Shown here piece by piece: positions 2,421-62,744 of a DNA stretch of 64,000 nucleotides. The DNA comes from an uncultured Pseudomonadota bacterium. Its GTDB lineage: Bacteria; Pseudomonadota; Alphaproteobacteria; Rs-D84. Both the position numbers and the translations under genes were made by a program. The notes below the pieces were generated by a model, which saw only the letters and a program-made list of their open reading frames with translations, did no database searches and had not been told where the DNA came from. The stretch lies in assembly GCA_902788485.1 (NCBI GenBank), contig CADAKI010000002.1, forward strand, positions 25,205-89,204. The letters run 5' to 3'. How positions within the stretch are numbered: the stretch's first letter is position 1; the number at the start of each line of letters is the position of its first letter.

Positions 2421-4365
2421 AAGGTGTTTTTTCTAATTTCCCAGATTTATAAATCACAAACCCATTGTGCAAAATTTTGTGATTGCATTTTGGCGCCGAT
2501 ATATCAAAGAAAGACACAATAAAATCTATATCGTCATCACGACATAAATTCACAATGTTTTTATGCAGTGGCACAAATTTTTGTATATATGCCAGGGTCC
2601 ATTTTTCCGATTTATATATGCACACACCATCCGGACATTTGCGACGAATATTTGTGTCTTGCGCCGCTTCATTATTCAATTTACGGAAAGTATTAAATGC
2701 GAAATAATGATTTGATGCGCGTGCCTTATTAAATTCCAGTTTCTCATCATACACCATACCAATCAATTCATGGTCACCTGTTGCATAAAATACAGGTGTT
2801 TCGCGCGCGGCAACAATTACGCATCCAATCGCGACACATAATACACACAACAAATAATTTGCATGGCGATAAACGAAATTTTTGGAATCAGACACCGGTT
2901 TTATTAAAATCAACAACACTAACCCAACTACAAAAAACACAAATGCGTTTGTTGGAATGTGCGGCATTACGATGTTTGCCATTGGCAACGCAACAATTTT
3001 ATTTGCAATCATGAACGCGAAATTATAAATACTCATCGCGACATTTAATAATAAATGTCCATGGAACATCGCGCATATTGTGCCAATCAAAACCAACGGC
3101 ATAATCGCGACAGAAAATATCGGCAATAAAATTAAATTTCCAATCAAACTATACATCGGTATCAAATTAAAATGTGTTGCGATAAATGGCATTGTGAAAA
3201 TCGTCGCAATAATAGATGTCATGGTCGCCACATAAAATCCATTTTTTATTTTTGCAATGCGTGTTTTAGAATCAAATTTTTTATCGCCAAAAAACCAAAT
3301 TAAACCAAATATTGCCGCAAAAGATAATTGAAACCCGGGTTGTGTCACAAAGTGTGGATTTACCAAAAATAAAATTAAAAACGCGATTGAAATATTGCGC
3401 ATTGATATCGCACTGCGTCCCAACAATAACGCCAAAAATAATACAGATGTCATCAAAAATGCGCGCCATGTTGCAACACCGAATCCAGACATACAAACAT
3501 ATAAAAATAATAACACCCACGCACAAATTGTTGCCGTGTATCGCGCCGGAAAACGCCTGGTTAAAAATCCGCATCCGCGCATCAGAAAATAAAATATTGC
3601 AAATAACCATCCACCAATCAGTGTCATGTGAAAACCACTGATTGACCAAATGTGCCCAACACCGGCGGTGGTCCAAATTTGTTTGTGTGTTATCGGTACA
3701 GAATTTTTATACCCCAACACCAACCCATCGGTTAGAAAAGAATTTGCGCGATTATGGATTGTATCGCGTAATTGATTTATGTTTGCCCCTGATACATGTG
3801 ATATGACGTTATAATCATCAATAAACCCATTTGCGGTCAAATTATTAAAATATGCCCAACGCGCATAATCGAAAGTTTCCGGTGCCTCAATCGATGCCGG
3901 CGGAAATAAAAACGCATGTGCCGAAATTACATCACCAATTTGTGGCGTCGTCGCGCCATTGGAAACAGTGACGCGAACATTTGCATCGCGCGACACACCC
4001 AAATCAGACGCCGGTACACGCAACATTATACGCGTTTTTTCATCTGAAAAATCAATGTTTGTAATTGTTGCCGTAATATTTTTATCGCGCAGTGCATATT
4101 TTAATACCGGTGTTGACACAATGATATGTGTATAAAATGCCGCATATAAAAATCCGCACACAAAACACATAAACGCGCGAAATAAAAAATTCATTTTTGC
4201 AAACAATAAAATTATAACGGCGGTAACAAAAGCCACAGGCATAAATTTGATATTGGGTTCAACCGGCATAATAAAATACAATCCCGCACCAAATGCCAAT
4301 AAAAACGGCACCCATAAAAATTTATCGTTAAATTGTTTGTTCAGGAATTCTGTCATAATCAACAT
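2389..4365 (-). CDS. comEC: ComEC/Rec2 family competence membrane protein (no metallo-beta-lactamase domain)
   Basis: Multi-TM competence-domain core and N-terminal DUF4131-like region. The C-terminus lacks the HxHxDH motif. It overlaps the truA end convergently by 32 nt. Confidence 0.65.
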   Translation of the reverse strand: MLIMTEFLNKQFNDKFLWVPFLLAFGAGLYFIMPVEPNIKFMPVAFVTAVIILLFAKMNFLFRAFMCFVCGFLYAAFYTHIIVSTPVLKYALRDKNITATITNIDFSDEKTRIMLRVPASDLGVSRDANVRVTVSNGATTPQIGDVISAHAFLFPPASIEAPETFDYARWAYFNNLTANGFIDDYNVISHVSGANINQLRDTIHNRANSFLTDGLVLGYKNSVPITHKQIWTTAGVGHIWSISGFHMTLIGGWLFAIFYFLMRGCGFLTRRFPARYTATICAWVLLFLYVCMSGFGVATWRAFLMTSVLFLALLLGRSAISMRNISIAFLILFLVNPHFVTQPGFQLSFAAIFGLIWFFGDKKFDSKTRIAKIKNGFYVATMTSIIATIFTMPFIATHFNLIPMYSLIGNLILLPIFSVAIMPLVLIGTICAMFHGHLLLNVAMSIYNFAFMIANKIVALPMANIVMPHIPTNAFVFFVVGLVLLILIKPVSDSKNFVYRHANYLLCVLCVAIGCVIVAARETPVFYATGDHELIGMVYDEKLEFNKARASNHYFAFNTFRKLNNEAAQDTNIRRKCPDGVCIYKSEKWTLAYIQKFVPLHKNIVNLCRDDDIDFIVSFFDISAPKCNHKILHNGFVIYKSGKLEKTPFNRWWNNPHE

Positions 4366-4433
4366 TATAAAATTTTATACTTGCGTCGCAATTAATATTT
4401 TTTATACGATAATATTACATAAGGAGAAAACTT

Positions 4434-18231: not shown

Positions 18232-18300
18232 ATTAAATTCCCTCTTTTTTTCATTGCGTTAAAATATCACTTTTGCTATGGTAACCCAAAAGGAAACAAA

Positions 18301-24328: not shown

Positions 24329-25348
24329 TTAAAAACTGACCTTTAATGCGGTGGATAAAAATGGTGTTTCATCTGTCAATCCGATTGATGTCCACACCTC
24401 TAAATTCTCGCTGTATTTATACCGGAAAGACGCAATTCCCGTATGGTCATAAAAATGTGGTAAATCGTGATGCCAAATGCCGGTATGTGAATACATATAC
24501 GATAACGACACAGAATAATTCAAAATATCATAACTGACACCCGCGCCCGCCGATATGCCGTCTGACGGTGTGCCAATCGGGTTTTTATCATAAATCGCAA
24601 CGGCAGATGTGCCGAAAATCCAACTGTTATATTGTAAATTAAAACCGATGGATGTTTGCGCCCGCCAATCGGCCGACACATCCGGCAAATACGATGCAGG
24701 ACTAAATCCATCCGGTTTTTCCATAAATGATGCGCCCAACGACACGGCAGATTTTAATTTCCCATTTGGAAATCTAAATTTGACACCACCGTCAACCGCG
24801 TAATCATACGCATCACCGAATGCCGCAACCGACACACCATATTGACCGACATTTGTTGGCACCGTCACCAAATTTATACGCGGTGTTCCATCCCCCGATG
24901 ACACAGACACATTTGGTATAACATTTCCACGTGGCGACATGCGTTTATAAAACAAAGGTTTGTTATTTACACGCAACCCACCAACATCCGGAATTCCAAC
25001 ACTTAATTTTCGTGCCGCAGAATCGGTCAGTCCAACCTCTAATCTACCAAGATCTTGATTTTCATATAACGCGAACGCATCGTGTGATATATCGTGTCCG
25101 GCCAATGCCTCTTCGTCCCAGGCATATACCAATCCCAATGTTTGACCGCGTGCGACGGCATAATTGTATTGTGCGCGCAAATCAAAATCGCCCAAAAATA
25201 AAGTGTCACGAAATTTTGGTTCGATGATGCCTGCGGTTCCCGACGCATTAAATTTCAACGCACTGCGCCCGTTGTTATATTGCAATGCATGCCCCGGGTT
25301 TATGAAGCACATCCCAAACACCATCGCACACAATAAATATTTTTGCAT
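24329..25348 (-). CDS. outer membrane beta-barrel protein (porin-like), translationally coupled to rpoH
   Basis: Signal peptide; alternating amphipathic strands; C-terminal ...LKVSF aromatic terminus. Its start overlaps the rpoH stop (TAATG). Confidence 0.55.
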   Translation of the reverse strand: MQKYLLCAMVFGMCFINPGHALQYNNGRSALKFNASGTAGIIEPKFRDTLFLGDFDLRAQYNYAVARGQTLGLVYAWDEEALAGHDISHDAFALYENQDLGRLEVGLTDSAARKLSVGIPDVGGLRVNNKPLFYKRMSPRGNVIPNVSVSSGDGTPRINLVTVPTNVGQYGVSVAAFGDAYDYAVDGGVKFRFPNGKLKSAVSLGASFMEKPDGFSPASYLPDVSADWRAQTSIGFNLQYNSWIFGTSAVAIYDKNPIGTPSDGISAGAGVSYDILNYSVSLSYMYSHTGIWHHDLPHFYDHTGIASFRYKYSENLEVWTSIGLTDETPFLSTALKVSF

Positions 25349-26262
25349 TATTTTCCCCCATCCGTATCATTTAAAATTGCATCGCGTAATTTTTGATACG
25401 CGCGTTCTTCGATTTGGCGCACACGTTCACGCGAAATTCCATATTTTTGCGACAAAGATTCCAATGTCTCTACCGGTTCACTCAACCGTCGTGCGCGTAA
25501 AATCTCGCGGTCGCGTTCCGGCAGTTCTGCCAAATGTTTGCGCAACAATTCATACCCACGCTTTTTAAATTCTAATTGTTCGATACTATCCTCGATACCG
25601 ATTTTATCATCAGACAAATTAGATAAAATATCATGTGCGTCCGGGTCATTATGTGCCGGCGCATTTAACGACACATCACGCGCACCAACACGCGTCGCCA
25701 TACGCGATACATCGGTTTCAGAAACATTTAAAAAATCCGCAATCTGTTTTGTTTGGTCAGAATTTAGATTGTTGTCCATAATACCCAACGCGCGTTTTGC
25801 ACGTGATAAATTAAAGAACACGCGTTTTTGATTTGCCGATGTTCCAATTTTCACAATAGACCAATTATTCAAAATTGTTTCATAAATTTCCGCCTTGATC
25901 CAAAACATCGCGTATGTTGAAAACCGAAACCCGCGTTCCGGGTCAAATTTTTGTAATGCCTGCATCAAACCCATGTTGCCCGACGCGATTAAATCCGCCA
26001 CCGGCACACCATAGTTTTTGAAATCATACGCCACCGATACAACCAGGCGCAGGTGCGATGCCACCAGTTTTTCCGCCGCCGCCGCATCGTGATTTTGTGC
26101 CCATTTAGTGGCATATTCATATTCTTGTTCGGCGGAAAGTATTGGGTATTTTTGAATACTTTGGATATATTGCGCCAAACCCGATTCATCACTGACCCCA
26201 CGGGCGGCAACAATACCGGTATTATTTACGGTCGGCAAAGTATTCTTGATTTGCTTTTTCAT
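25348..26262 (-). CDS. rpoH: RNA polymerase sigma-32 factor
   Basis: Sigma70 regions 2-4 plus RpoH box QKRVFFNLSRAKRAL; 304 aa. Confidence 0.9.
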   Translation of the reverse strand: MKKQIKNTLPTVNNTGIVAARGVSDESGLAQYIQSIQKYPILSAEQEYEYATKWAQNHDAAAAEKLVASHLRLVVSVAYDFKNYGVPVADLIASGNMGLMQALQKFDPERGFRFSTYAMFWIKAEIYETILNNWSIVKIGTSANQKRVFFNLSRAKRALGIMDNNLNSDQTKQIADFLNVSETDVSRMATRVGARDVSLNAPAHNDPDAHDILSNLSDDKIGIEDSIEQLEFKKRGYELLRKHLAELPERDREILRARRLSEPVETLESLSQKYGISRERVRQIEERAYQKLRDAILNDTDGGK

Positions 26263-28449: not shown

Positions 28450-28613
28450 TTTTTTCTCCTTTTATGTTGTTTATTTTATAAATCAAATCCGGAACATTTG
28501 CCAAATATTACAACCCGCGGTTGAAGTTCGAATCGAGAATTATATTGTTTAGCAATATTTTCCTATTTTTATTCGAATCGACGCATGTTCTCGTTTTTTG
28601 ATTTATGATTTAT

Positions 28614-28654
28614 TTAATAAAAAAACACACATCTTTCGATGTGTGTTTTTCATT
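28614..28654 (-). terminator. rho-independent terminator of the virB8-B9-B10 operon (AACACACATC-tttc-GATGTGTGTT + T-run on the minus strand)
   Basis: Perfect 10-bp stem. On the minus strand a T7 tract follows it. It sits 25 nt after the virB10 stop. Confidence 0.65.
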
Positions 28655-28678: not shown

Positions 28679-31108
28679 TCAATTAACCTCGAACGGTGGG
28701 AAACAATCGCCACTGCCCGCCGGGCAACACGCAAATGGGTATTCCGAATCAGGTCCCATTTCCGTATATGTTTCGCCTGTACAGCATCCATTTGCATCGG
28801 GGGCCGTGCCATCTTCGCACAATAATGTGCCAACCGCATTTGTGCCCGCCGCCGGTTTTGGCTGATTAAATGGATTTATGATATTGTCATTTTCATCATA
28901 TTTTAATCCCAAAACCTGTTCATTATACGCCTTGGTTTGTTCTTCTGTTCGATTATCGGTGGTTCCGTATGTGTTTTGGAATGCCTGTTGTTGACTGTTA
29001 TAATATGCATCCTGTTTTGCCATATTAATTGCGGTATAATTTTTGGCCTGACAATACGCCAACACCGTTCTGTAATCGTATCCTGCGTTTGAAATTTCCA
29101 ACGCTTTATTTGAATCTGCGGTCCATACCCCTTTGGAATCTTGGGTGCAATATGGATCCAGGTTAAACGCACGAACTTGTCCAATCCATGAAGAATCTGT
29201 TTTATCAACAGTCATTTTATTTTTTACATCTTTCCACTCGCGCCGTTGTTGTTCGCTGTATTTTTCAAAAGCACATTTTTTGCCCGCATTTGGCCCTTTA
29301 GGGTCGCCACATGTTGCGATTAAATCAACAGGTGAATAAACGGTAATACGTGTTCCGGCGGCAATCGAAAATGGCGGCACGGTATTATCCAATGCATCAA
29401 CCATCAATTTTTGCGCAACCTTGTTCCATGCGGAAATAACCTCGTTCTTGGCCAATTCAGACGACCGCACAGTTCCCGATTGCACAACCGTGTTATTGTC
29501 CAAATCAATTTGATTTACAAATGTATCGGCAATTGGCGCAATCATATTTACCGCCGCCGGAATCACCGCCGTCAACAATGGCATAACCATTTGTTCGATA
29601 TAATCGGTACTGCCGTATCCGGGGACACCGACACGACCCTGGGAATCCGCGGAATACGGATCCTGGTCTTCGTCTTTGAAATTGAATTCGACGCCATCTG
29701 GACGAATAAATTGATACCATTTAATTTCCATACGTCCAATAGATTTATACGGCCCCGGCAAATTACCACGCAAATATCCCAATAATAATGTTCCGGTTGG
29801 AATAATGACCGTGCGTCCATTATCAGAATAAACATTTCTGTCCACCGTTGCACGAACCGGAATACCACTGCCGCCCTTGCAGTTACCGTCGTTATCGCAA
29901 TCATACACGGATGGGTCGGCACGAACCTCGGATACAATGGTTGCCGGAATTGGTTTGAATTGACGTAATATAAATGTGCGGTCGTACGGCATACTGGAAT
30001 ATACAGATTCCCCACCGCTTGCGGACCCTTTTAAAGATTCTGTATTTACTGTATTTGCCACAAAATTCATACCACTTTCATTTGGTTTCATTGTCTTTTT
30101 CAAATTATTCATCCCTTTGGGGGTGTATCCATCGCTTGCCGCCGGGCGCGTTGAAACACCGGTCGATTTTGAACGCAGGTTTGGCACCACATTTGTCGAT
30201 GTTGTGCGATGATCGGCATCGGTTCCAATCTTTGTCCGGCCGTCGATACTTGTAATAATGCCGGTATCCGGATTATAAACACCGGTTGGATTATTGCATT
30301 CCGTATCAGAAAACGGATGAAATTCATATCGACCCGATTTCGGTTTTATCCAACCAATTTGCACACCCGACATATTATATCCAGGCATCGCAAAATCAGA
30401 ACATTTTTCCGGTGCGCGCCGACGTGGTGCGGGGGCAGGTGTGGGTAAATTGTCTTCGAAAATATTTTTTTCGCCACCAACAATCGGTTCGGGCGTATCA
30501 AAATAATCGTCATCGTTAAAATCGTTATCATCGGCAACAATGTCGTCTTCAACAGGCGAGGGTGCAGGTTCCGGTTTCGATTCTGTTTTTTGTTTTTGGA
30601 TGTTGCCTGTGGCACTGACCGGGATAACAATTTTTGATGTTTGTAAATTTGTATCGCGCGAATCGTTTTTATCAAACCATTCAATCAACAATGTGACATC
30701 GCCCGCCACGTCCGTCGTGCCCGGGGTGAACGTCACATCCACAGAACACGGAATATCTTTATTTACCGGTTGATTCGTGCATCCCGCGGTATTCGCCGAA
30801 AATCCCGGTATAGAATTTTCCACACTGACCGAATCAACAATTGCATCATGGGTTGCATTTATACGAAAAACCTGGGTGCGTTTTGTCCCGATTTTAGTAT
30901 TTAAAAAATCTACATTGTTTGGTGTGACAGTCAATGTGATATCATACCCCGTATCCACAACCGGCGTCGGATTCTTGTTCGACCGCCCAATCAATAACAC
31001 CAACAATATCAACACAACAACAAATGCCGCAATCATCAACAGCCAACGAACCGCGGTTGGTGTCGTATCCAATGTTGATTTTATTTTATCTCTCATCGTA
31101 TTTGCCAT
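28679..31108 (-). CDS. virB10: VirB10/TrbI-family T4SS protein with N-terminal beta-rich domain, Pro-rich linker and ~200 aa Cys-rich C-terminal extension
   Basis: Cytoplasmic N-terminus plus TM (LLMIAAFVVVLILLVLLI). Pro-rich segment PEPAPSPV...PTPAPAP. Conserved VirB10 C-terminal barrel motifs (RTVIIPTGTLLLGYLRGNL; ...TRITVYSPVDL). The 809-aa length is about twice that of canonical VirB10. Confidence 0.7.
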   Translation of the reverse strand: MANTMRDKIKSTLDTTPTAVRWLLMIAAFVVVLILLVLLIGRSNKNPTPVVDTGYDITLTVTPNNVDFLNTKIGTKRTQVFRINATHDAIVDSVSVENSIPGFSANTAGCTNQPVNKDIPCSVDVTFTPGTTDVAGDVTLLIEWFDKNDSRDTNLQTSKIVIPVSATGNIQKQKTESKPEPAPSPVEDDIVADDNDFNDDDYFDTPEPIVGGEKNIFEDNLPTPAPAPRRRAPEKCSDFAMPGYNMSGVQIGWIKPKSGRYEFHPFSDTECNNPTGVYNPDTGIITSIDGRTKIGTDADHRTTSTNVVPNLRSKSTGVSTRPAASDGYTPKGMNNLKKTMKPNESGMNFVANTVNTESLKGSASGGESVYSSMPYDRTFILRQFKPIPATIVSEVRADPSVYDCDNDGNCKGGSGIPVRATVDRNVYSDNGRTVIIPTGTLLLGYLRGNLPGPYKSIGRMEIKWYQFIRPDGVEFNFKDEDQDPYSADSQGRVGVPGYGSTDYIEQMVMPLLTAVIPAAVNMIAPIADTFVNQIDLDNNTVVQSGTVRSSELAKNEVISAWNKVAQKLMVDALDNTVPPFSIAAGTRITVYSPVDLIATCGDPKGPNAGKKCAFEKYSEQQRREWKDVKNKMTVDKTDSSWIGQVRAFNLDPYCTQDSKGVWTADSNKALEISNAGYDYRTVLAYCQAKNYTAINMAKQDAYYNSQQQAFQNTYGTTDNRTEEQTKAYNEQVLGLKYDENDNIINPFNQPKPAAGTNAVGTLLCEDGTAPDANGCCTGETYTEMGPDSEYPFACCPAGSGDCFPPFEVN

Positions 31109-31137: not shown

Positions 31138-32673
31138 TTATTGGATTCTGACCACACGACATCCCGAAACCTGGAATTTCATCAGTTTATCACATAATGT
31201 TTGTGCCTCGTCGATATCCGCCAATGGACCAATGCGCAAACGATACATAGTTGCCGACGATACACCCGAACCCAAATCGCCCACACCTTCGGTGTCAATC
31301 GCAAAGAACACTTTGTTTTGATATGGAGTCAAAATTCCGGCACCACCATCGCCACTGAATTTAACCAATAAATCGTTCCAATATTCTTCCAATGCTTTTG
31401 GTGATCTATCAGACGCAAATTCCACCGCCACACCCGATTGATTTGATTTTATCAACGGAATATTTGATTGTGGCAGGTACGAACCGGCGGTATCCCGTGC
31501 GGTTGGAATCATTGTTGTGCCACCCGATGTGGCACCCCCAGACATTGGCACCGCCCCCGGCATATTCATTTGTGCATTACCATATCCCGCCGGCATATAA
31601 GCACCGGTTGCCATTGGATTTTGTACATTTGACATATACATCGGTGTTGCGGTGTAATCCATTGCACCGCCATACATCGCCGACATATCTGCATCATACG
31701 CAATATTATTTAATGATTGCCCAGACATCATGCTTTGCGCAACATTTGCCTCGGCCAACGCCATAACCGACGCGGTATCCGCAATCAAGAACGGCTTTTC
31801 ACGTTTTTTAATACAAACAATGCGTTGACCACTGCGTAAAACCATATCGCCCACGGCCTCGACAATTAATAATCTGCCGTCTTGGCCATCGGTGCGGAAA
31901 CCAACCGGGGATTCGCCACCTTCTATCAACAAAGACACCACAGGACGTTGAGTCATGGCAATAACTTTATCGCCAAAATCAATGTATGTAAATATTTTGT
32001 CGCGCCACACGCGTTCCGGCGCAATTACATAATCGTCCGGGTTTGGAACGAAAATATCCAAATCAAAACGGAATTCAGACGGGTCGATTTTCATCGATTT
32101 TATCCACGCATAATCTTCGCCATCAACACCAATGGTATTGGTGGTTGGTGCCGCTTTGCGGAATATAGAATTCATCCCACCGGATTGGCGTTGTGTGGCA
32201 GGTGTTGCATTTGCAATTGTTGCGCCATTGTCCAAAACAACATCCACCTGGGAATAAGAAATTTCATTTGCATCGACGGTGCCTGGACTGGACAAATAGA
32301 ATATGTATTTATTTCCCGATTGTCCCGTCACAATCATGTTGGTGTCCGATTCTGATGCTTCGATGGGGGTGATGTAAAAAGTACGATCGCCCTGGGTTGC
32401 CTCGATTTGATACAAAGATTGGTCGCCAACAACCGCATCGGCAATTTGTTCGCCATTTGGCAATGTTACCATCGTCACCATACCATTACGCAACTTTAAT
32501 GGCAAAACCGTTCCGGTTGACCACCCCAGTTGTGCATATCCAGGTTTTGTACTGCCGGTGGCCATGTTTGCCGTTGGGTTTTCCCATGCGCGTTGCACCA
32601 CGGCATTTGCGATGTCAACGGACATCAAAAACAAACAAGAAACAATTCCGTTGATTTTCAAAAACTTTAACAT
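31138..32673 (-). CDS. virB9: VirB9/CagX-family T4SS protein fused to a Met/Gly/Tyr-rich linker and a C-terminal SPOR domain
   Basis: Signal peptide. VirB9 N- and C-domain beta-sandwich regions (FYITPIE..., TDGQDGRLLIVEAVGDMVLRSGQRIVCI). A low-complexity region rich in M, G, A and Y. Terminal ~75 aa (…YRLRIGPLADIDEAQTLCDKL…CRVVRIQ) is SPOR-like. Confidence 0.65.
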   Translation of the reverse strand: MLKFLKINGIVSCLFLMSVDIANAVVQRAWENPTANMATGSTKPGYAQLGWSTGTVLPLKLRNGMVTMVTLPNGEQIADAVVGDQSLYQIEATQGDRTFYITPIEASESDTNMIVTGQSGNKYIFYLSSPGTVDANEISYSQVDVVLDNGATIANATPATQRQSGGMNSIFRKAAPTTNTIGVDGEDYAWIKSMKIDPSEFRFDLDIFVPNPDDYVIAPERVWRDKIFTYIDFGDKVIAMTQRPVVSLLIEGGESPVGFRTDGQDGRLLIVEAVGDMVLRSGQRIVCIKKREKPFLIADTASVMALAEANVAQSMMSGQSLNNIAYDADMSAMYGGAMDYTATPMYMSNVQNPMATGAYMPAGYGNAQMNMPGAVPMSGGATSGGTTMIPTARDTAGSYLPQSNIPLIKSNQSGVAVEFASDRSPKALEEYWNDLLVKFSGDGGAGILTPYQNKVFFAIDTEGVGDLGSGVSSATMYRLRIGPLADIDEAQTLCDKLMKFQVSGCRVVRIQ

Positions 32674-32697: not shown

Positions 32698-33420
32698 TTA
32701 TAACTCGTCTGCTTGGCGTGTCCAATTCAGTGGGTCATTTTGTTCCAAATCTAAAACATTTCCGGCGGCATCAATAACATTATAATCACTGATGCGAAAA
32801 CCCAATGGGTTTTCCATGCGTTCCGCCCACCGAACCGCATTTCCGGCGTTTGATTCCAATTTTACACGCAATTTATATGGTTTGCGATATTCCATATCCC
32901 CCAGTGGTCCATAATTACACACATATGTAAATGTCACGATATATGTATCTGCATCGCGTGAATTTACATCGTTTACGACCGATAACCGACCCGCCGGATA
33001 TTCAACAGCACAACTGATATCAAATGCCTCGTCCAAATCTTGGCGAATGATGTTCACCATGTCTGTCATAACAAATTTTCCAAAAACCGCATCTGTGGAC
33101 CGGGTTTTGATAACGCCGTCATCGCTGTATGCCCATTTTTCGCGCATTTTAGATACATCGGGCACAATTTCATTTCGTTCACGAACATATTCGCGAATAA
33201 ATTGATGTTTATACGCATCCAGGTTGTCCGTCGGCATCTCGGTCAGTGTCAATTCTTTGTCACGAATATTTTGTGTGGTCAAGAAAAACACCTGGGGACG
33301 ATTTAATGGGAACATTTTATCCAATGTCCAAACCAAAACCCCCAGCACGACCAACGCCGTTGCCATAACCAAGGTCATTAATCTAGATATCAAAACTGGC
33401 GGTTCTATGCGTTCTGGCAC
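32698..33420 (-). CDS. virB8: VirB8-family T4SS protein (GTG start)
   Basis: Bitopic topology with a periplasmic NTF2-like domain. It is the first gene of the B8-B9-B10 operon. A GGGGGAG RBS lies 8 nt before the GTG. Confidence 0.65.
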   Translation of the reverse strand: MPERIEPPVLISRLMTLVMATALVVLGVLVWTLDKMFPLNRPQVFFLTTQNIRDKELTLTEMPTDNLDAYKHQFIREYVRERNEIVPDVSKMREKWAYSDDGVIKTRSTDAVFGKFVMTDMVNIIRQDLDEAFDISCAVEYPAGRLSVVNDVNSRDADTYIVTFTYVCNYGPLGDMEYRKPYKLRVKLESNAGNAVRWAERMENPLGFRISDYNVIDAAGNVLDLEQNDPLNWTRQADEL

Positions 33421-33446
33421 AGGTTTTCTCCCCCTTTTATTAAATG

Positions 33447-33476
33447 ATTGTAGAAAAAATATTTATATATACGCAA
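33447..33476 (-). promoter_or_regulatory. candidate virB operon promoter TTGCGT-18-TACAAT (minus strand)
   Basis: The -35 lies inside the left arm of a 12-bp inverted repeat (ACGCAAGTAAAA, 33471-33482). The -10 is about 26 nt before the GTG. Confidence 0.3.
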
Positions 33477-33567
33477 GTAAAAAACGATATAACAATGGTA
33501 AAAAAATTTGTTGTGCAAAAATTGTACTTTGAACTTTGTAAATTGAATTTTGATATAAAGATTTTAC

Positions 33568-33596
33568 TTGCGTTAAAATATTTAAATCTTTATAAT
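33568..33596 (+). promoter_or_regulatory. candidate promoter TTGCGT-17-TATAAT for tRNA-Trp-secE-nusG
   Basis: The -35 lies inside the right arm of the inverted repeat (TTTTACTTGCGT, 33562-33573). The -10 is about 79 nt before the tRNA. Confidence 0.35.
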
Positions 33597-33674
33597 ATTT
33601 TCGCTTGATTTTTGCCAATGTTGTGCTAGCCTTGGCAAGAATATCGATTGTATCGTGCGCAACAGGTATGCCAC

Positions 33675-33748
33675 AGGGGCTTAGTTCAACGGTAGAATAT
33701 CGGTCTCCAAAACCGCGGATGAGGGTTCGATTCCTTCAGCCCCTGCCA
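33675..33748 (+). tRNA. trnW: tRNA-Trp (anticodon CCA)
   Basis: Cloverleaf with a 7-bp acceptor stem AGGGGCT/AGCCCCT, anticodon loop CT-CCA-AA, TPsiC arm GGTTCGATTCC and 3' CCA. Near-identical in outline to known tRNA-Trp and in the conserved position before secE. Confidence 0.9.
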
Positions 33749-33786
33749 AAGAAATAACTCTTGGAACCTGGTGATATAATTGGTAT

Positions 33787-33996
33787 ATGTCTGGACAAAA
33801 AAACAAGTGGCGACTTATGAAAAAAGTATTTGAATATATAAAATCTGTTCGCAGCGAATGGTTCAAAATTGTATGGCCGTCGCGCGATACTGTTGTTCGT
33901 TCAACCATAATGATTTTGATTTTTTCTGGGTTGGCGGCGTTGTTTTTCTTTGTTATCGACAGTATTTTAAACGCATTGGTAAATTGGATTTTCTAA
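33787..33996 (+). CDS. secE: preprotein translocase subunit SecE
   Basis: EWxKVxWPSRxE-like motif (EWFKIVWPSRDTVV) and a single C-terminal TM. Confidence 0.85.
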   Translation: MSGQKNKWRLMKKVFEYIKSVRSEWFKIVWPSRDTVVRSTIMILIFSGLAALFFFVIDSILNALVNWIF

Positions 33997-34024
33997 CCGT
34001 TAAACACCAAAGGGGTACACTAAA

Positions 34025-34558
34025 ATGGAAGATAAAATGCAATGGTTTGTTGTAAATGTTCATACCGGCGCCGAAGACAAAGTCGCCCGTCAGTTGCGTG
34101 AACAAATTGATAAACGTCGTTTAAATGCATATTTTGGTGAAATTTTGGTTCCCACGCGTGAGGTTGCGGAAATCAAGGGCGGAAAACGTGTTGTTTCTGA
34201 ACGGAAATTCTTTCCGGGCTATATCGTTGTTCAAATGGTTTTGAATAATGAAACATTTTCTTTGATTAAATTGATGCCGTTGGTTGTGATGTTTTTGGGT
34301 GCAAAAAACAAACCAATTCCGGTCACCGAAGAAGAAGCCCGCCGTCTGTTAAAACAGGTCGAAGAAGGTTCCAAGGTACCCGAAGATATTATTTATGAAA
34401 AAGGTCAAGAAGTTCATGTTATCGATGGCCCATTTGCGGGTTTCAATGGTATTATATCCGAGGCCGATAATTTGAAACAAAAAATGAATGTGACGGTTTT
34501 GGTGTTTGGGCGTGAAACCGGTATGGAATTGGACTTTGCCCAGGTCGAAAGAGTTTAG
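34025..34558 (+). CDS. nusG: transcription termination/antitermination factor NusG
   Basis: NGN domain (WFVVNVHTG) and KOW domain (GQEVHVIDGPFAGFNGII). Confidence 0.9.
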   Translation: MEDKMQWFVVNVHTGAEDKVARQLREQIDKRRLNAYFGEILVPTREVAEIKGGKRVVSERKFFPGYIVVQMVLNNETFSLIKLMPLVVMFLGAKNKPIPVTEEEARRLLKQVEEGSKVPEDIIYEKGQEVHVIDGPFAGFNGIISEADNLKQKMNVTVLVFGRETGMELDFAQVERV

Positions 34559-34667
34559 TTTGGGTGTTCCAAACTGAAAAAAAACGCGGGAAACCGCGAC
34601 AAACCCGTGGCAGATGGCCATATCGTACCACGGAAATTACTTAAAAATAACAAAAAGGTAAAACAAA

Positions 34668-35099
34668 ATGGCAAAAAAAGAAGTAAAAAGTCTTGTAAAG
34701 TTGGTTGTTCCGGCCAAGCAAGCAAACCCAGCGCCACCGATTGGGCCGGCATTGGGTGCGGCGGGTGTGAATATCGCCGAATTCTGCAAACAATTTAATG
34801 ACAAAACGGCTGATAAAAAACCTGGGATGCCAATTCCATGTATAATTACCGTTTATACAGACCGCAGTTTCGAATTTATCATGAAATTGCCACCTGTGTC
34901 ATATTATATCAAAGAAGCATTAAAGTTGAAATCTGGTTCGCATAAACCGGGTCGTGAATTTGTTGGGACATTGAACAAATCACAAATCAAAGAAATTGCT
35001 GAAAACAAAATGCCTGATTTGAATTGCTCTACCATTGAATCTGCGATGAACATTGTTGCGGGTCAATGCCGTTCTATGGGCGTCAAGGTGGAGGATTAA
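34668..35099 (+). CDS. rplK: 50S ribosomal protein L11
   Basis: [16 protein letters not shown] is the hallmark L11 motif. Confidence 0.95.
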
Positions 35100-35101
35100 T
35101 C

Positions 35102-35776
35102 ATGAAACAGACAAAAAGACAAAAAAATTTATCCGCATTGGATAAAGAAAAGGTTTATACAATTTCTGATGCGATTGATGCATTGCGTCCATATTGTTCA
35201 TCTAAATTTGACGAAACATTGGAAATCGCAATCCGTTTGGGTATTGATGTGACCAAAAACGATCAAAATATCCGTGGGATGTTGTCTTTGCCAAACGGAA
35301 CCGGTAAAACCGTTCGTGTTGCTGTATTCACAGAAAACAGCCAAGACGAAGCCAAAAAGGCCGGTGCCGATGTTGTTGGTGGCGAAGATTTAATCGCACG
35401 TGTTGCGGACGGTAATGTTGATTTTGACCGTGTTATTGCAACACCGGATATGATGCCAAAGATGTCACGCGTTGCACGTGTTTTGGGACCAAAAGGTTTG
35501 ATGCCGAATCCGAAATTGGGAACGGTCACAACCAATGTTGCCGATGCGGTTAAAACCGCCAAGGCGGGTCAAATTGAATACCGTGCCGACAAAAATGGTA
35601 TTATCCACGCAGGCATTGGCAAAATGTCTTTTGCGACGGAAAAATTGGTCGAAAACGCGAACGCATTGATTGATCAATTGAAAAAGGTTAAACCTGCGTC
35701 ATCCAAGGGTCAATACATCTTGGGATGCAGTGTTGCAACAACCCAAGGCCCAGGCCTGAAAATTGACGCAAAATAA
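35102..35776 (+). CDS. rplA: 50S ribosomal protein L1
   Basis: L1 family (GMLSLPNGTGKTVRVAVF). The start is set at the ATG preceded by a GGAGGA RBS, overlapping the rplK stop region. The track ORF begins further upstream in frame. Confidence 0.9.
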   Translation: MKQTKRQKNLSALDKEKVYTISDAIDALRPYCSSKFDETLEIAIRLGIDVTKNDQNIRGMLSLPNGTGKTVRVAVFTENSQDEAKKAGADVVGGEDLIARVADGNVDFDRVIATPDMMPKMSRVARVLGPKGLMPNPKLGTVTTNVADAVKTAKAGQIEYRADKNGIIHAGIGKMSFATEKLVENANALIDQLKKVKPASSKGQYILGCSVATTQGPGLKIDAK

Positions 35777-35793
35777 TATTTCAAGGTTTATAT

Positions 35794-35836
35794 GTGCAAA
35801 GTTTGAACTTTGAACTTTGAACTTTGCACTTTGAAC
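35794..35836. repeat. GTGCAAAGTT-(TTTGAAC)n-AACTTTGCAC hairpin / tandem heptamer repeat between rplA and rplJ
   Basis: Five tandem heptamers (4x TTTGAAC, 1x TTTGCAC) inside a 10-bp inverted repeat. A related copy occurs at 33513-33555. Confidence 0.6.
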
Positions 35837-35986
35837 CACAGCTTTCTGTCCGTGACTGATGGTGTGCAAATGCACTTAATTCCCATCATAGACAAAGAAA
35901 TTTCTTTGGGGCAGGAAAACAAGAGCCCCACCCATGAACAACATGGATGGATATGTTAAACAAAATGAAGAAGTAAGGGTATATAG

Positions 35987-36466
35987 ATGAGACGCGAAGA
36001 AAAATCAGATCTGATTTCAGCGTTGCAGTCGTCCTTGAAATCTGCAAACGGTGTTTTCGTTATTGAAAACCATGGTTTGACAGTGCGCGAAATGGAAACA
36101 TTACGTAATGAATTGCGTCCATTGGTGTCATTGTTCAAAGTTGTCAAAAACCGTTTGATGAAATTGGCTTTGGCCGACACAGATTTCGCACCTGTATCTG
36201 ACATGATGAAACGTCCAACGGCGGTTGCAATCGCAACAGACGCATTGGCGGTCACCAAGGTTTTGGCCAAATTTGCCGATGAACATCCAAATTTGACAAT
36301 CGTTGGTGGAAAAATGGATGCAGATGTTTTGGGTGTGAACGACATTGTGCAATTATCCAAGCTTCCTTCCCTGTTGGAAGTTCGCGGTACAATCGCGCGT
36401 ATCTTGGTCGAACCTGCATCGCGCTTGGCACGTGTTTCCGCAGAGTATGGAAAAAAAGAAAATTAA
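35987..36466 (+). CDS. rplJ: 50S ribosomal protein L10
   Basis: L10 family; position upstream of rplL. Confidence 0.9.
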   Translation: MRREEKSDLISALQSSLKSANGVFVIENHGLTVREMETLRNELRPLVSLFKVVKNRLMKLALADTDFAPVSDMMKRPTAVAIATDALAVTKVLAKFADEHPNLTIVGGKMDADVLGVNDIVQLSKLPSLLEVRGTIARILVEPASRLARVSAEYGKKEN

Positions 36467-36492
36467 AATAAAACTCAAGTAAGGAGTAAAAA

Positions 36493-36858
36493 ATGGCAGA
36501 CATTCAAAAATTAGTTGAAGAATTGTCAAAATTGACTGTTTTGGAAGCTGTTGAATTATCCAAAGCATTAGAAGAAACATGGGGCGTCAGTGCGGCTGCT
36601 GCGGTGGCTGTTGCTGCGGGTCCGGCTGCGGCTGCGGCGGAAGAAAAAACAGAATTTGATGTCGTATTGGCAGAAGCCGGTGCGAACAAATTGGCTGTTA
36701 TCAAGGCCGTCAAAGACATCACCGGTTTGGGATTGGGTGAAGCCAAAGCATTGGTTGAATCTGCGCCAAAAGCCGTGAAAGAAGGCGTTGCCAAAGAAGA
36801 AGCCGAAAAAATGAAGGCAACTTTGGAAGCCGCCGGCGCAAAAGTAGAAATGAAATAA
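36493..36858 (+). CDS. rplL: 50S ribosomal protein L7/L12
   Basis: Ala-rich hinge and the C-terminal domain [19 protein letters not shown]...[22 protein letters not shown]. Confidence 0.95.
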
Positions 36859-36871
36859 TTTCAAAACCGCT

Positions 36872-36924
36872 AATCGCACGGATTTGCGATTGGGTCCACC
36901 CCGCCGGGAAAAATCCCCGGCGGG
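36872..36924 (+). terminator. tandem hairpins at the rplL-rpoB junction (attenuator-like)
   Basis: A 7-bp AATCGCA/TGCGATT hairpin, then a 9-bp GC stem CCCGCCGGG-aaaaatc-CCCGGCGGG. No clean U-tract follows. This is the classic location of the rplL-rpoB attenuator. Confidence 0.4.
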
Positions 36925-36995
36925 TGTTGGGCAAAAAAACATATTACAAACAGTTTCGTTTGCAAAACGCATAATAAAATAAAGGATTTAAACCC

Positions 36996-39900
36996 ATGGC
37001 AGTCATCCAGAAATTTAGAAAATCTTTTGGCAAAAGTTTTTTGCAAACTCCACTTCCCGATTTGGTCGAAATTCAATATAATTCATACAAGGACTTTTTA
37101 CAGGCCGATGTTGACCCGCAAAAGCGCGAAAACAAGGGACTGCAAAGTGTTTTCTTGTCAATGTTTCCAATCAAAGATTATTCTGGTATCGCGGATTTGG
37201 AATTTGTCGAATATACACTGGAAAAACCTGTATACAATGTAAAAGAATGCATGTTGCGCAATATGACATATTCACGCAGATTAAAGGTGAAATTACGCCT
37301 GATTCTGTGGGATATTGCCGAAGACGGTAAAAAAACATTGCGTGATATCAAAGACCAAGAAATCTTTATGGGCGAAGTCCCATTGATGACTGAACGGGGC
37401 AGTTTTATCGCGGCCGGTGTGGAACGTGTTATCGTTTCCCAAATGCACCGTGCCCAAGGTGTCGTTTTTGCAACCACCAAAGAGGCGAAAATTGCCGGTA
37501 ATCCGACAACATATACCGCGCGTATTATCCCGGAACATGGGTCTTGGATTGATTTCGAAGAATCCAAAGGCGTGATTTACGTTCGTATTGACCGTCGTCG
37601 CAAGGTTCCGGCGACCGTATTGTTACGTTGCCTGCCATGCGCCGAAGATGAAAAGAAATGGGCGTCTGACCCGCGCAAACCGGGCATTCGCGGCATGTCT
37701 GATGTGGAAATATTGTCGGCATTTTATAAATCAATTCCGTTGTCTTTTGATGGCAAGGTTTGGGTTGGTGACACCGCCAGTTTCGATGGATTGGATAAAT
37801 ATCGCCTGAATTATGATTTACTGTCTGTCAAGGGTGACAAAGAATTGGCCAACAAAGGCGACCGCCTGACGGCAAAACGTTTGTCTAAATTGATGTCGTC
37901 TGCAAAACAATTCGGTATCAAACCGGAATCATTGGTTGGCGAATATTTGTTCGAACCAATAACATCTGCGGGCGAAGTGGTGTATCCATCGGGTACCGAA
38001 ATTACTGACGAAATTTTGTCTGATTTGGATAAAATGGGTGTCAAAAACATTTCCATCATCGCGATTGATAACACAACCGTGACGGCGCACATGCGCAATA
38101 CTTTGGCGGCGGATAAAATTACAAACCGTGACGATGCATTGATTGAAATTTATAATGTTATCAGACCTGGTGAACGTCCAACGGTCGAGGCCGCACTGAA
38201 TTTATTCCTGCGCCAGGGTTTTGATGCCGCATATTATGATTTGTCGGCGGTTGGTCGTTTCAAAATGAACAAACGTTTGAAAATTGATTCTGGCAAACGT
38301 CCCGAAGATGAACGTTTATTGACCAAGAACGATTTCTTGGCGGTGTTAAAAACATTGACCAACATTATCGACCACAAAGATACAATTGATGATATTGATA
38401 ATTTGTCTAACCGTCGTGTTCGTGCGGTTGGTGAATTGTTGGAACAAACTTTCCGTACGGGTATGTTGCGTATTGAACGTCTGGTTCGTGAAAGTTTGTC
38501 GTCCCCAAATATCGCAAATATGCAACCCCAAGATGTTATCAATGTTAAACCATTGATGTCATTGGTTGCAGAATTTTTGGGAACATCGCAATTATCACAA
38601 TTTATGGATGCGTATAATCCATTGGCGGAATTGGAACACAAACGTCGTATTTCGGCATTGGGGCCGGGCGGGTTAAACCGCGAACGTGCCGGCATTGATG
38701 TCCGCGACGTGCATCCGACACATTATGGTCGTTTGTGTCCAATTCACACACCCGAAGGTGCAAACATCGGTTTGATTAACCATTTGTCATCTTATGCGCG
38801 TGTAAACGAATATGGATTTATCACAACCCCATATTACGAGGTTAAAAATGGCAAGGTCACAGATAAAATCGTATATTTGACTGCTGACGAAGAAATGGGA
38901 CACAAAATTGCCCAGGGTAACACCCCGACAAACGCACGTGGTGAATTGACACCGGATGTTGTGACGGCACGTGTTGACGGCGAATTTACGATGGTTCCAA
39001 AATCTGAAATTGATTTAATCGACGTTGAACCGCGCCAGGTGGTGTCCATCGCAACAGGTTTGATACCGTTCGTTGAAAACGACGACGCGAACCGTGCATT
39101 GATGGGTTCAAACATGCAACGCCAGGGCGTTCCATTATTGCGTGTCCAGGCCCCATTGGTTGGTACCGGTATCGAACGCGAGGTTGCACGTGATTCCCGC
39201 ACCGGCAAGGTTGCAAAACACAGTGGTGTTGTGGAATCTGTGGATGCGAACCGTATTGTGGTTAAATGTATGAATTCCCGCAATGTTGTGACGGGTGTGG
39301 ATATTTATAACCTGGAAAAATTCGAACGTTCCAACAGTGAAACAATCGTTCATCAAAAACCATTGGTCCGTGTTGGCGACCGTATTTCTGCAGGCGACAT
39401 TATTGCCGACGGTTCTTCGATGAATTATGGTGAATTGGCGTTGGGTCGCAATGTGTTGGTTGCATTTGTGCCATGGCGCGGATACAACTATGAAGACGCG
39501 ATTGTTATTTCCGAACGCATTTCCCGCGAAGATGCATTTACATCGGTCAAGATTGTGGAAAAAGAATTCAAGGTTCGTGATACCCAACTGGGGCCAGAAA
39601 GTTTTACACGCGACATCCCAAATGTCAGTGAAGAAGCCGTGAAAAACCTGGACGAATCCGGTATCATTTATGTTGGCGCCCGCGTGAAACAGGGTGACAT
39701 TTTGGTTGGTCGTGTATCGCCAAAATCTGAAACATTATTGACACCCGAAGAGGCGTTATTGCGCAACATATTCGGTGAAAAGGCATTAAATGTCAAAGAT
39801 ACATCTTTGCGTGTTGGACCAAACGAAGAAGGAACGGTTATTGGTGTGAACGTTTTGACCCGTCATGGTGTCAAAAAAGACGAACGCACCCAAATGATTG

Positions 39901-50599: not shown

Positions 50600-50725
50600 A
50601 TTTTTCTCCTACATTTTTATAAATATTTTACCATATTTCAGGGTATAAAACAAATAAAAAAAGTGCATTAATTGCACTTTGCCTGTACCCCCATAGCGCA
50701 AAGCGCGACGGGGCAAACTTTGAGA

Positions 50726-62076: not shown

Positions 62077-62105
62077 AAATAAATCAAAAATTTCATAAAA
62101 ATATC

Positions 62106-62135
62106 TTGCACGATTTGGGTTGCTTTTTCTATAAT
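62106..62135 (+). promoter_or_regulatory. candidate promoter TTGCAC-18-TATAAT
   Basis: Consensus-like hexamers about 25 nt upstream of the AAAGGAG RBS of the 62160 gene. Confidence 0.35.
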
Positions 62136-62159: not shown

Positions 62160-62744
62160 ATGAAACACAAAATTTTATCTGTATTATTTGGTTTGTTTGT
62201 TGTGTGTGGGGCGGGTCGTGCGGCCGATATAACGATTTATTATTCGCCAACATGTCCGCATTGTCATCATATGCGCGATTATGCATCGAACAATTTTATT
62301 TATGAATATCCGACAATAAACATCACAATGGTTGATGTGACGGTACCGGAAAATCGTGGATTGTTTTTTGATGTGATAAAATCATGTGATTTTTCATCTG
62401 GTGGTGTGCCGGTAATTAAAATCGGCGACAAATGTTTCCAAGGTTTTGCCGAATCTATGGTGGATGATATGCGCACCGCGATAGAGGTTGATATGGATGA
62501 CGCTGCAAAAAAATCTGCGGCGGCGGTCAAAAAATCAATTGCCGAAAACGGTGATGAATATCGTGATGCGCACCCAACACCGGTTGCAACCATCACGGAA
62601 TACAGTGCGCCGGCAACAGATGAAAATCCGGAAAAAAAAACGGCCGCATCTGACAACAAATGGGCATCATGGGGTTTAATAATATTGGCATTGGCGGTAT
62701 TGGGATTCAGTATTTTTGTCGCCGGTGGTAAATCAAGAAAATAA
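62160..62744 (+). CDS. secreted thioredoxin-fold protein (CPHC motif) with C-terminal membrane anchor
   Basis: Signal peptide MKHKILSVLFGLFVVCGAGRA, a YYSPTCPHCHH redox motif and a C-terminal TM WASWGLIILALAVLGFSIFVAGG. The start is set at the ATG after the AAAGGAG RBS rather than the track start 62106. Confidence 0.45.
   Translation: MKHKILSVLFGLFVVCGAGRAADITIYYSPTCPHCHHMRDYASNNFIYEYPTINITMVDVTVPENRGLFFDVIKSCDFSSGGVPVIKIGDKCFQGFAESMVDDMRTAIEVDMDDAAKKSAAAVKKSIAENGDEYRDAHPTPVATITEYSAPATDENPEKKTAASDNKWASWGLIILALAVLGFSIFVAGGKSRK

Follow-up and report, generated by a model that had tools for sequence, protein, structure and literature searches.

Inverted repeat and predicted promoters between virB8 and tRNA-Trp

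The window, a 64-kb stretch of DNA from an uncultured gut alphaproteobacterium of the order Rs-D84 (Candidatus Enterousia and relatives), contains a spacer of 254 bp between two divergent transcription units: a virB8-like gene heading a set of type IV secretion genes on the minus strand, and a tRNA-Trp gene on the plus strand, followed by secE, nusG and genes for ribosomal proteins and RNA polymerase. Within the spacer lies a 12-bp inverted repeat, which a sequence-only reading had taken both as a source of two -35 hexamers and as a possible binding site for one factor acting on both sides. Judging from the sequence and its conservation, we think it likely that the spacer holds three primary-sigma (sigma-70-type) promoters, one reading leftwards (P_virB8) and two reading rightwards in tandem (P1 and P2), and that the repeat is two outward-facing -35 modules and no operator.

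The repeat consists of ACGCAAGTAAAA at 33471-33482 and its exact reverse complement TTTTACTTGCGT at 33562-33573, with a gap of 79 bp (33483-33561), just as first described. It ranked top among the inverted repeats in a repeat search and can be extended to 19 nt at 84%. When the spacer was shuffled 2000 times with its dinucleotides preserved, 1.3% of the shuffles contained an inverted repeat of 12 bp or longer without mismatch. The elements of the two outward-facing promoters that had been proposed are also present in the sequence, each with a TTGCGT -35 hexamer, separated by 18 bp from TACAAT on the minus strand and by 17 bp from TATAAT on the plus strand. The -10 boxes of P_virB8 and P1 are separate and 138 bp apart, which leaves room for two polymerases at once. 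We found P2, which the sequence-only reading did not mention, between P1 and tRNA-Trp; it is 36 bp downstream of P1, so that tRNA-Trp, secE and nusG would be served by tandem promoters. The distance from the -10 to tRNA-Trp is 78 nt for P1 and 42 nt for P2, and 26 nt separate the P_virB8 -10 from the GTG start codon of virB8, with the Shine-Dalgarno sequence in between. The elements of the spacer are as follows:

33427-33435, minus strand: Shine-Dalgarno sequence AGGGGGAGA of virB8, recognized from sequence, 6 nt 5' of the GTG
33447-33452, minus strand: -10 TACAAT of P_virB8, predicted start near 33440
33453-33470, minus strand: 18-bp spacer of P_virB8, with a T-tract and C (33453-33459) directly upstream of the -10
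33471-33482, minus strand: left arm of the inverted repeat, comprising the -35 TTGCGT (33471-33476) and the upstream C, A and T-run of P_virB8
33512-33555, plus strand: TGTGCAAA and five degenerate heptamers, upstream of all three predicted promoters and transcribed by none of them
33562-33573, plus strand: right arm of the inverted repeat, comprising a T-run, A and C and the -35 TTGCGT (33568-33573) of P1
33591-33596, plus strand: -10 TATAAT of P1, after a 17-bp spacer, predicted start near 33603
33605-33632, plus strand: P2, with TTGATT at 33605-33610, a 16-bp spacer, TGTG at 33622-33625, C, and TAGCCT at 33627-33632, predicted start near 33639-33640

A profile search with VirB8 returned 80 loci from species-representative genomes (L003-L082), with VirB8 identities from 91% down to about 40%; promoter counts below refer to 79 sequences, i.e., the window and 78 species-level relatives. 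In 77 of the loci, ARAGORN places tRNA-Trp divergently upstream of virB8 at a distance of 220-281 bp. L006, whose locus is cut by a contig end, is the 78th with virB8 and tRNA-Trp head to head, giving 78 of 80 in total. The exceptions, L007 and L013, have a different, co-oriented gene upstream of virB8 and no tRNA-Trp neighbor. The spacers are mostly unalignable apart from three near-invariant blocks, and these coincide with the promoter positions.

At P_virB8, C-TTGC and the 18-bp spacer occur in all 79 sequences. The -10 is TACAAT in 72, TATGAT in six and TATCAT in one, so that its T, A and final T are invariant, and the T-tract positions of the spacer are 95-100% conserved. P1 has TTGC in 78, a 17-bp spacer in 78 and TATAAT in all 79, in agreement with the plus-strand TATAAT promoter that had been placed ahead of tRNA-Trp-secE-nusG. 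P2 combines a -35 of the form CTTG(A/C)TT, a 16-bp spacer (79 of 79) and a -10 of the form TGTG-n-TAnnnT; its CTTG, TGTG and TA...T are invariant in 55 sequences. Fourteen variants of the P2 -10 hexamer are found among the 79 sequences, and T, A and T never vary in any of them. Free middle bases between fixed T, A and T are the signature of a real -10 element. All three promoters thus have a -35 beginning with TTG, a TAnnnT -10 and a spacing of 16-18 bp (79 of 79 throughout, except for the 78 of 79 at the P1 spacer), and conservation is focused on the contact positions (TTG; -12T, -11A and -7T) while other positions vary freely. Upstream of the -35, a run of T at -7 to -3 from TTGC is 96-100% conserved at P_virB8, where it forms part of the left arm together with the invariant C-TTGC, and 58-87% conserved at P1; it is T-rich, in contrast to the A-rich upstream (UP) element consensus of E. 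coli. Phylogenetic footprinting therefore strongly supports the promoters proposed from the window sequence. For the minus-strand promoter, which had been said to drive the virB operon, the conservation bears out the promoter, but the operon itself is limited to virB8, virB9 and virB10 and is closed by a strong terminator.

The arms as probable -35 modules

In the explanation we favor, each arm would be the -35 module of this lineage, consisting of a T-run, A or G, CTTGC and a purine. As the promoters face apart, a pair of such modules shows up as an inverted repeat. Both arms would be read by RNA polymerase, through sigma region 4 and possibly through the alpha C-terminal domains on the T-run. 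P_virB8 (CTTGCGT, 18 bp, TACAAT) would direct a short-leader virB8-virB9-virB10 mRNA leftwards to the terminator, and P1 (CTTGCGT-17-TATAAT) and P2 (TTGATT-16-TGTGcTAGCCT) would together direct transcription of tRNA-Trp-secE-nusG and of the downstream genes for ribosomal proteins and rpoBC. Between the arms there would be A/T-rich filler of variable length. Since core housekeeping genes lie behind P1 and P2, the -35 type shared by the two sides must, we infer, belong to the primary sigma factor. Simple, largely constitutive promoters would also fit genomes of under about 1 Mb, as most genomes of Rs-D84 and Candidatus Enterousia are (PMC12306168).

The same module recurs elsewhere. Apart from the two exact arms, a search of the 64 kb for further copies of the 12-mer, which had been suggested genome-wide as a check on whether it is a common dispersed repeat, gave one copy with a single mismatch, at 4375. 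TTTTNCTTGC occurs 102 times in 485 kb of the relatives' loci, and 97 of these copies correspond to one or the other promoter arm in the virB8/tRNA-Trp spacer; being almost confined to these arms, it is promoter-specific and no dispersed repeat. The extended pattern CTTGCR-N13-TTTTT-N-TAYRAT has three matches in the window: P_virB8 itself, 4380-4410 and 62105-62135. The match at 4380-4410, 24 nt before pyrG, includes the one-mismatch 12-mer copy and has CTTGCGT, the 18-bp spacer, a T6-tract and TACRAT in common with P_virB8. The match at 62105-62135 (CTTGCAC-18-TATAAT with a T5-tract) precedes an open reading frame (ORF) for a secreted protein. P1 in turn has TTGCGTTAAAATAT in common with the promoter predicted at 18254 for a SurA-like gene. 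More generally, in the intergenic DNA of the window no 4-mers other than homopolymers are as enriched at the -35 register of TANNNT as TTGA and TTGC. The housekeeping promoter consensus of Sinorhizobium is CTTGAC-N17-CTATAT, and a CTTG-type -35 is the alphaproteobacterial norm (PMC2873474). With this norm and the housekeeping genes behind P1 and P2, RNA polymerase holoenzyme is the simplest reader of both arms.

Two side observations concern these sites. The 68-bp spacer between comEC and pyrG holds a second symmetric divergent pair (4364-4410), in which the predicted -35 boxes of pyrG (plus strand) and comEC (minus strand) overlap as the palindrome TTGCGTCGCAA (4381-4391). Downstream of the predicted promoter at 62105 come a Shine-Dalgarno sequence (AAAGGAG) and, at 62161, an ATG; the start of the longest ORF, at 62106, is therefore probably wrong, and the product of the ORF at 62161 begins like a signal peptide and has no Pfam match.

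It might instead be an alternative sigma factor that recognizes the CTTGC boxes, perhaps the RpoH-like product of the gene at 25348-26262; both operons would then belong to a stress regulon. A sigma-70-family gene does lie 7 kb away, and alphaproteobacterial RpoH promoters also start with CTTG. Nevertheless, the -10 boxes are TACAAT and TATAAT and not of the C-rich RpoH type, the tRNA, secE, nusG, ribosomal protein and rpoBC genes form the archetypal primary-sigma regulon, and pyrG has a promoter of the same design. We regard this possibility as extremely unlikely.

Several observations weigh against the primary-sigma interpretation: (i) TTGCGT matches the E. coli consensus TTGACA at three of six positions. 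(ii) A promoter scan based on the E. coli consensus calls neither promoter and proposes a plus-strand site instead, TTGATA(33550)-18-TAAAAT(33579). (iii) The invariant spacer T-tract on the virB8 side and the A-tract on the P1 side are not explained by canonical hexamer contacts. (iv) The near-universal head-to-head order could reflect selection for coupling rather than low rates of rearrangement. (v) The two arms of a genome resemble each other slightly more than arms of different genomes do (315 matches versus 279 ± 7.8 at positions -12 to -2), which could come from a second reader of both arms.

The second point bears on a reading in which A/T-rich DNA has produced the repeat and hexamers by chance and the real promoters lie elsewhere, and the scan is indeed about equally rich in shuffled DNA, with seven promoter-like sites in the real region against 5.8 ± 2.1. 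However, the hexamers and their spacing are invariant in the 79 sequences amid unalignable DNA, and we rejected the site preferred by the scan, neither hexamer of which is conserved among relatives. A chance origin is therefore scarcely credible.

The third and fourth points bear on a reading in which the head-to-head order is itself a regulatory device, with expression of virB8-virB10 tracking growth-dependent transcription from P1 and P2. The coupling could be exerted by negative supercoiling between the divergent polymerases, as has been discussed for divergent genes (PMC4770239), or through a shared upstream A/T-tract, in genomes of less than 1 Mb with few transcription factors; the similarity of the arms would then be kept so that both promoters respond alike. 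Such coupling would be in line with the 78 of 80 conservation, with the unequal invariant spacers (18 versus 17 bp) and with the invariant T- and A-tracts, none of which demonstrates it, and we consider it unlikely.

The fifth point touches the original proposal of one shared factor, here taken as a dimeric or looping protein that would co-regulate virB and tRNA-Trp/secE/nusG and have the arms as its operator half-sites. In its favor are the improbability of an exact 12-bp repeat by chance, the head-to-head order in 78 of 80 species and within-genome arms that are slightly more alike than consensus alone predicts. To compare the arms, both promoters of each genome were aligned in promoter orientation. 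Common to both arms everywhere are C-TTGC and a tendency to an upstream T-run and a following purine. In about half of the species, among them the closest relative, L003 (91% VirB8 identity), the arms match exactly over a run of 5 bp; about 17 of 71 genomes, spread over several subclades, have a run of 10-14 bp, and the window has one of 12 bp. The distance between the -35 hexamers ranges from 44 to 115 bp (median 56; 79 sequences) with no preferred phase. L007 and L013, in which virB8 has no tRNA-Trp neighbor, keep ATACGCAAGTAAAAAACG, an 18-bp spacer and TACAAT before virB8, the same as the left arm in the window. There is thus no fixed distance between the arms and no extra conservation of both, and half-sites occur singly. 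The variable distance, the short shared run and the lone left arm indicate that the arms are autonomous promoter elements rather than an obligate pair. In addition, each arm sits exactly at a -35 with invariant spacing to its -10, where RNA polymerase alone suffices, the module also occurs at pyrG and at 62105, and these reduced genomes have few regulators. We therefore hold an operator to be highly improbable.

As for the likeness of the arms within a genome, control regions show no such excess of matches, and the excess fades as the genomes are dereplicated more strictly (p = 0.0014 for n = 41, 0.026 for n = 26 and 0.16 for n = 16). This co-variation is weak and fits occasional templated mutation or lineage drift in polymerase preference, so that a second factor is not required. 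In the primary-sigma explanation, the length of the perfect match would fluctuate among species and would probably be extended at times by templated mutation between the quasi-palindromic arms. Accordingly, the proposal that one factor, binding the arms or the heptamers between them, co-regulates a secretion system with the ribosomal/RNA polymerase superoperon finds no support in view of the variable spacing, the 5-bp core, the lone arm, the module elsewhere and the patchy occurrence of the heptamers described below.

Heptamers, leader RNA and regulator motifs

The run of TTTGAAC-like heptamers noticed between the arms is real and one unit longer than claimed (ATTGTAC TTTGAAC TTTGTAA ATTGAAT TTTGATA, 33521-33555), and the accompanying GTGCAAA motif is present at 33513-33519. 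By lag-7 autocorrelation the run has 19 of 28 matches (p about 0.001 against shuffles); Tandem Repeats Finder did not detect it. The segment 33512-33553 has a counterpart in the spacer between rplA and rplJ (35793-35834), with 34 of 42 positions identical without gaps (81%). The alignment score of 44 compares with 16.5 ± 2.6 in shuffles and with no more than 27 for the other intergenic DNA of the window. The counterpart is:

35794-35836, plus strand: heptamer element in the rplA-rplJ spacer, GTGCAAAG (TTTGAAC)x3 TTTGCAC TTTGAAC

It forms a 14-bp RNA hairpin (-18.2 kcal/mol, z = -5.39) and is kept in many Rs-D84 relatives, while others have a GC-rich hairpin there, after rplA. In the virB8/tRNA-Trp spacer the fold is lost (z = -0.4 and -0.6). 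Among relatives, L008 has a clear spacer copy and L003, L004 and L009 have a weaker or diverged one, and it is absent from L006, L010, L011 and the distant relatives; L005 has a weak period-7 signal only and is otherwise counted as lacking the copy. From these comparisons we take the spacer heptamers to be an ectopic, decaying copy of the hairpin element between rplA and rplJ, which would lengthen the variable filler, and not as a conserved regulatory array.

The heptamers or GTGCAAA could alternatively be an array of regulator sites or an upstream activating element for P1, perhaps also for P_virB8, in which case the copy before rplJ would tie the ribosomal operons together. Their position, at about -48 to -82 from the predicted P1 start, is in the usual zone of upstream activators, the 7-bp period reaches significance in the window and L008, with a weaker signal in L003, L005 and L009, and the near-perfect copy in the rplA-rplJ spacer is kept in many relatives. 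Against this, the promoters are invariant even where the array is missing, as it is in L005, L006, L010, L011 and all distant relatives. The rplA-rplJ copy, as a strong RNA hairpin at the site where other species have their GC-rich hairpin, likely acts at the RNA level, and the spacer copy has lost both the fold and 19% of its positions. Moreover, the 64 kb contain no further copies, and 7 bp is not a helical repeat. A regulatory array is thus very unlikely.

Nor is any specific motif between the arms conserved that could serve as the site of a shared factor: no 6- to 8-mer between the arms is common across species except A/T-tracts. Searches for DnaA boxes and for k-mer enrichment in the central region likewise gave A/T-tracts only. 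The Agrobacterium vir box TNCAATTGAAAY, the CtrA box TTAA-N7-TTAA and the alphaproteobacterial LexA box GAAC-N7-GAAC occur in none of the 55 dereplicated spacers.

A structured leader RNA downstream of P1 was considered and rejected. A hairpin seen by eye had apparently compensating changes in close relatives, but RNAalifold on 55 leaders gave no consensus pairs, and the single-sequence fold of the window leader is no better than shuffles (z = -0.93). Searches against Rfam returned only the tRNA over 33000-34200, at a permissive threshold, and only sub-threshold noise over 34500-37100. Because the conserved block after P1 lacks RNA pairing, its conservation is at the DNA level, which we read as P2.

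Two further observations concern the hairpin element. Its rplA-rplJ copy precedes a block with wide conservation, GATTTCTGTCCGWGACTGATGGTGTG, which resembles the start of an rplJ (L10) leader and has no Rfam match. A hairpin at 50660-50690, the second-best local match to the heptamer segment (score 27), consists of GTGCATTAATTGCAC followed by TTTG and resembles the GTGCAAAG...CTTTGCAC-TTTG element. There may be a small family of terminator-like hairpins with GTGCA stems.

Relation to known systems and flanking genes

The feature is probably a set of ordinary back-to-back primary-sigma promoters with a tandem P1-P2 arrangement on one side, and there is no sign of a special shared regulator. It resembles classical divergons with back-to-back sigma-70 promoters in having two complete outward promoters with abutting upstream regions, and housekeeping and accessory operons that share one spacer. 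It differs from them in that no regulator gene or operator lies between the promoters, and in that the arrangement, here of a type IV secretion sub-operon and a translation/transcription superoperon, is fixed throughout the order (78 of 80). Divergent transcription is also tied to sequence symmetry in the bidirectional promoters of E. coli and Salmonella, where symmetry of the -10 allows RNA polymerase to engage pseudo-symmetrical promoter DNA in either orientation (PMC12825309, PMC10268837). In contrast to such promoters, which use one shared core both ways, the two -35 modules here are separate, 79 bp apart, and each has its own -10 (33447-33452 and 33591-33596).

In E. coli, rRNA and tRNA operons have tandem P1-P2 promoters of the rrn type, about 120 bp apart and with upstream elements rich in A/T. 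The predicted P1 and P2 are similar in that two close promoters precede a stable-RNA/translation operon, with a consensus TATAAT and an A/T-tract upstream of the -35. They differ in being 36 bp apart, in having a T-run on the non-template strand instead of the A-rich UP consensus and in lacking conserved Fis-like sites. The Caulobacter-type -10 is GCTANAWC. Features shared with the alphaproteobacterial consensus (PMC2873474) and with this -10 type are the CTTG start with its invariant C, the C before the -10 in P_virB8 (CTACAAT) and in P2 (GCTAnnnT), and spacers of 16-18 bp. On the other hand, the -35 reads TTGCR, with C and G/A at positions 4 and 5 where the consensus has AC, and the TATAAT of P1 is E. 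coli-like.

In Rickettsiales, the promoters of virB8-virB9-virB10-virB11-virD4 operons are under EcxR/wBmxR-type factors (PMC3518464, PMC9657007). The window has in common with these a virB8-first operon, a scattered type IV secretion system and a small alphaproteobacterial genome. Here, however, the operon ends after virB10 at a terminator with no virB11 or virD4 next, the neighbor is tRNA-Trp and not ribA, and no factor site is conserved. The core secretion genes are thus under a predicted housekeeping-type, probably constitutive promoter and are not visibly regulated. A term search of the report on Enterousia genomes found neither "secretion" nor "virB" (PMC12306168). The footprinted promoter set (C-TTGC-R -35, fixed spacers, T-tract or TGTG extensions) could be used to annotate transcription units in Rs-D84. 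It also advises caution, as an inverted repeat between divergent genes need not be an operator; opposed copies of any promoter module form one automatically.

The genes that flank the spacer and the end of the virB operon are the following:

28612-28651, minus strand: intrinsic terminator 3' of virB10, stem AAAAACACACAUC/GAUGUGUGUUUUU, then a U-run
28679-31108, minus strand: virB10-like gene, 809 aa (TrbI, PF03743, 5e-15)
31138-32673, minus strand: virB9-like gene, 511 aa (CagX, PF03524, 4e-21)
32698-33420, minus strand: virB8-like gene, 240 aa, GTG start (Pfam PF04335, weak match)
33675-33748, plus strand: tRNA-Trp (CCA)
33787-33996, plus strand: secE
34025-34558, plus strand: nusG, followed by rplK, rplA, rplJ, rplL and rpoB

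The N-terminus of VirB8 is conserved across 33 aligned homologues, and its Shine-Dalgarno sequence is kept in relatives as a GGGGGAGA-like block. The terminator lies 28 nt past the virB10 stop codon and folds with -18 kcal/mol (z = -5.15), which none of 200 shuffles equals; it is absent from the output of the consensus terminator scan. We looked for virB11, virD4 and virB4 in the 64-kb window and found none of them. The VirB9-like protein carries a C-terminal, peptidoglycan-binding SPOR domain (PF05036, 1e-4), and the VirB10-like protein has a cysteine-rich C-terminal tail. About 7 kb from the virB genes, the minus-strand gene at 25348-26262 encodes a 304-aa member of the sigma-70 family that has regions 1.2, 2 and 4 and is probably RpoH-like.

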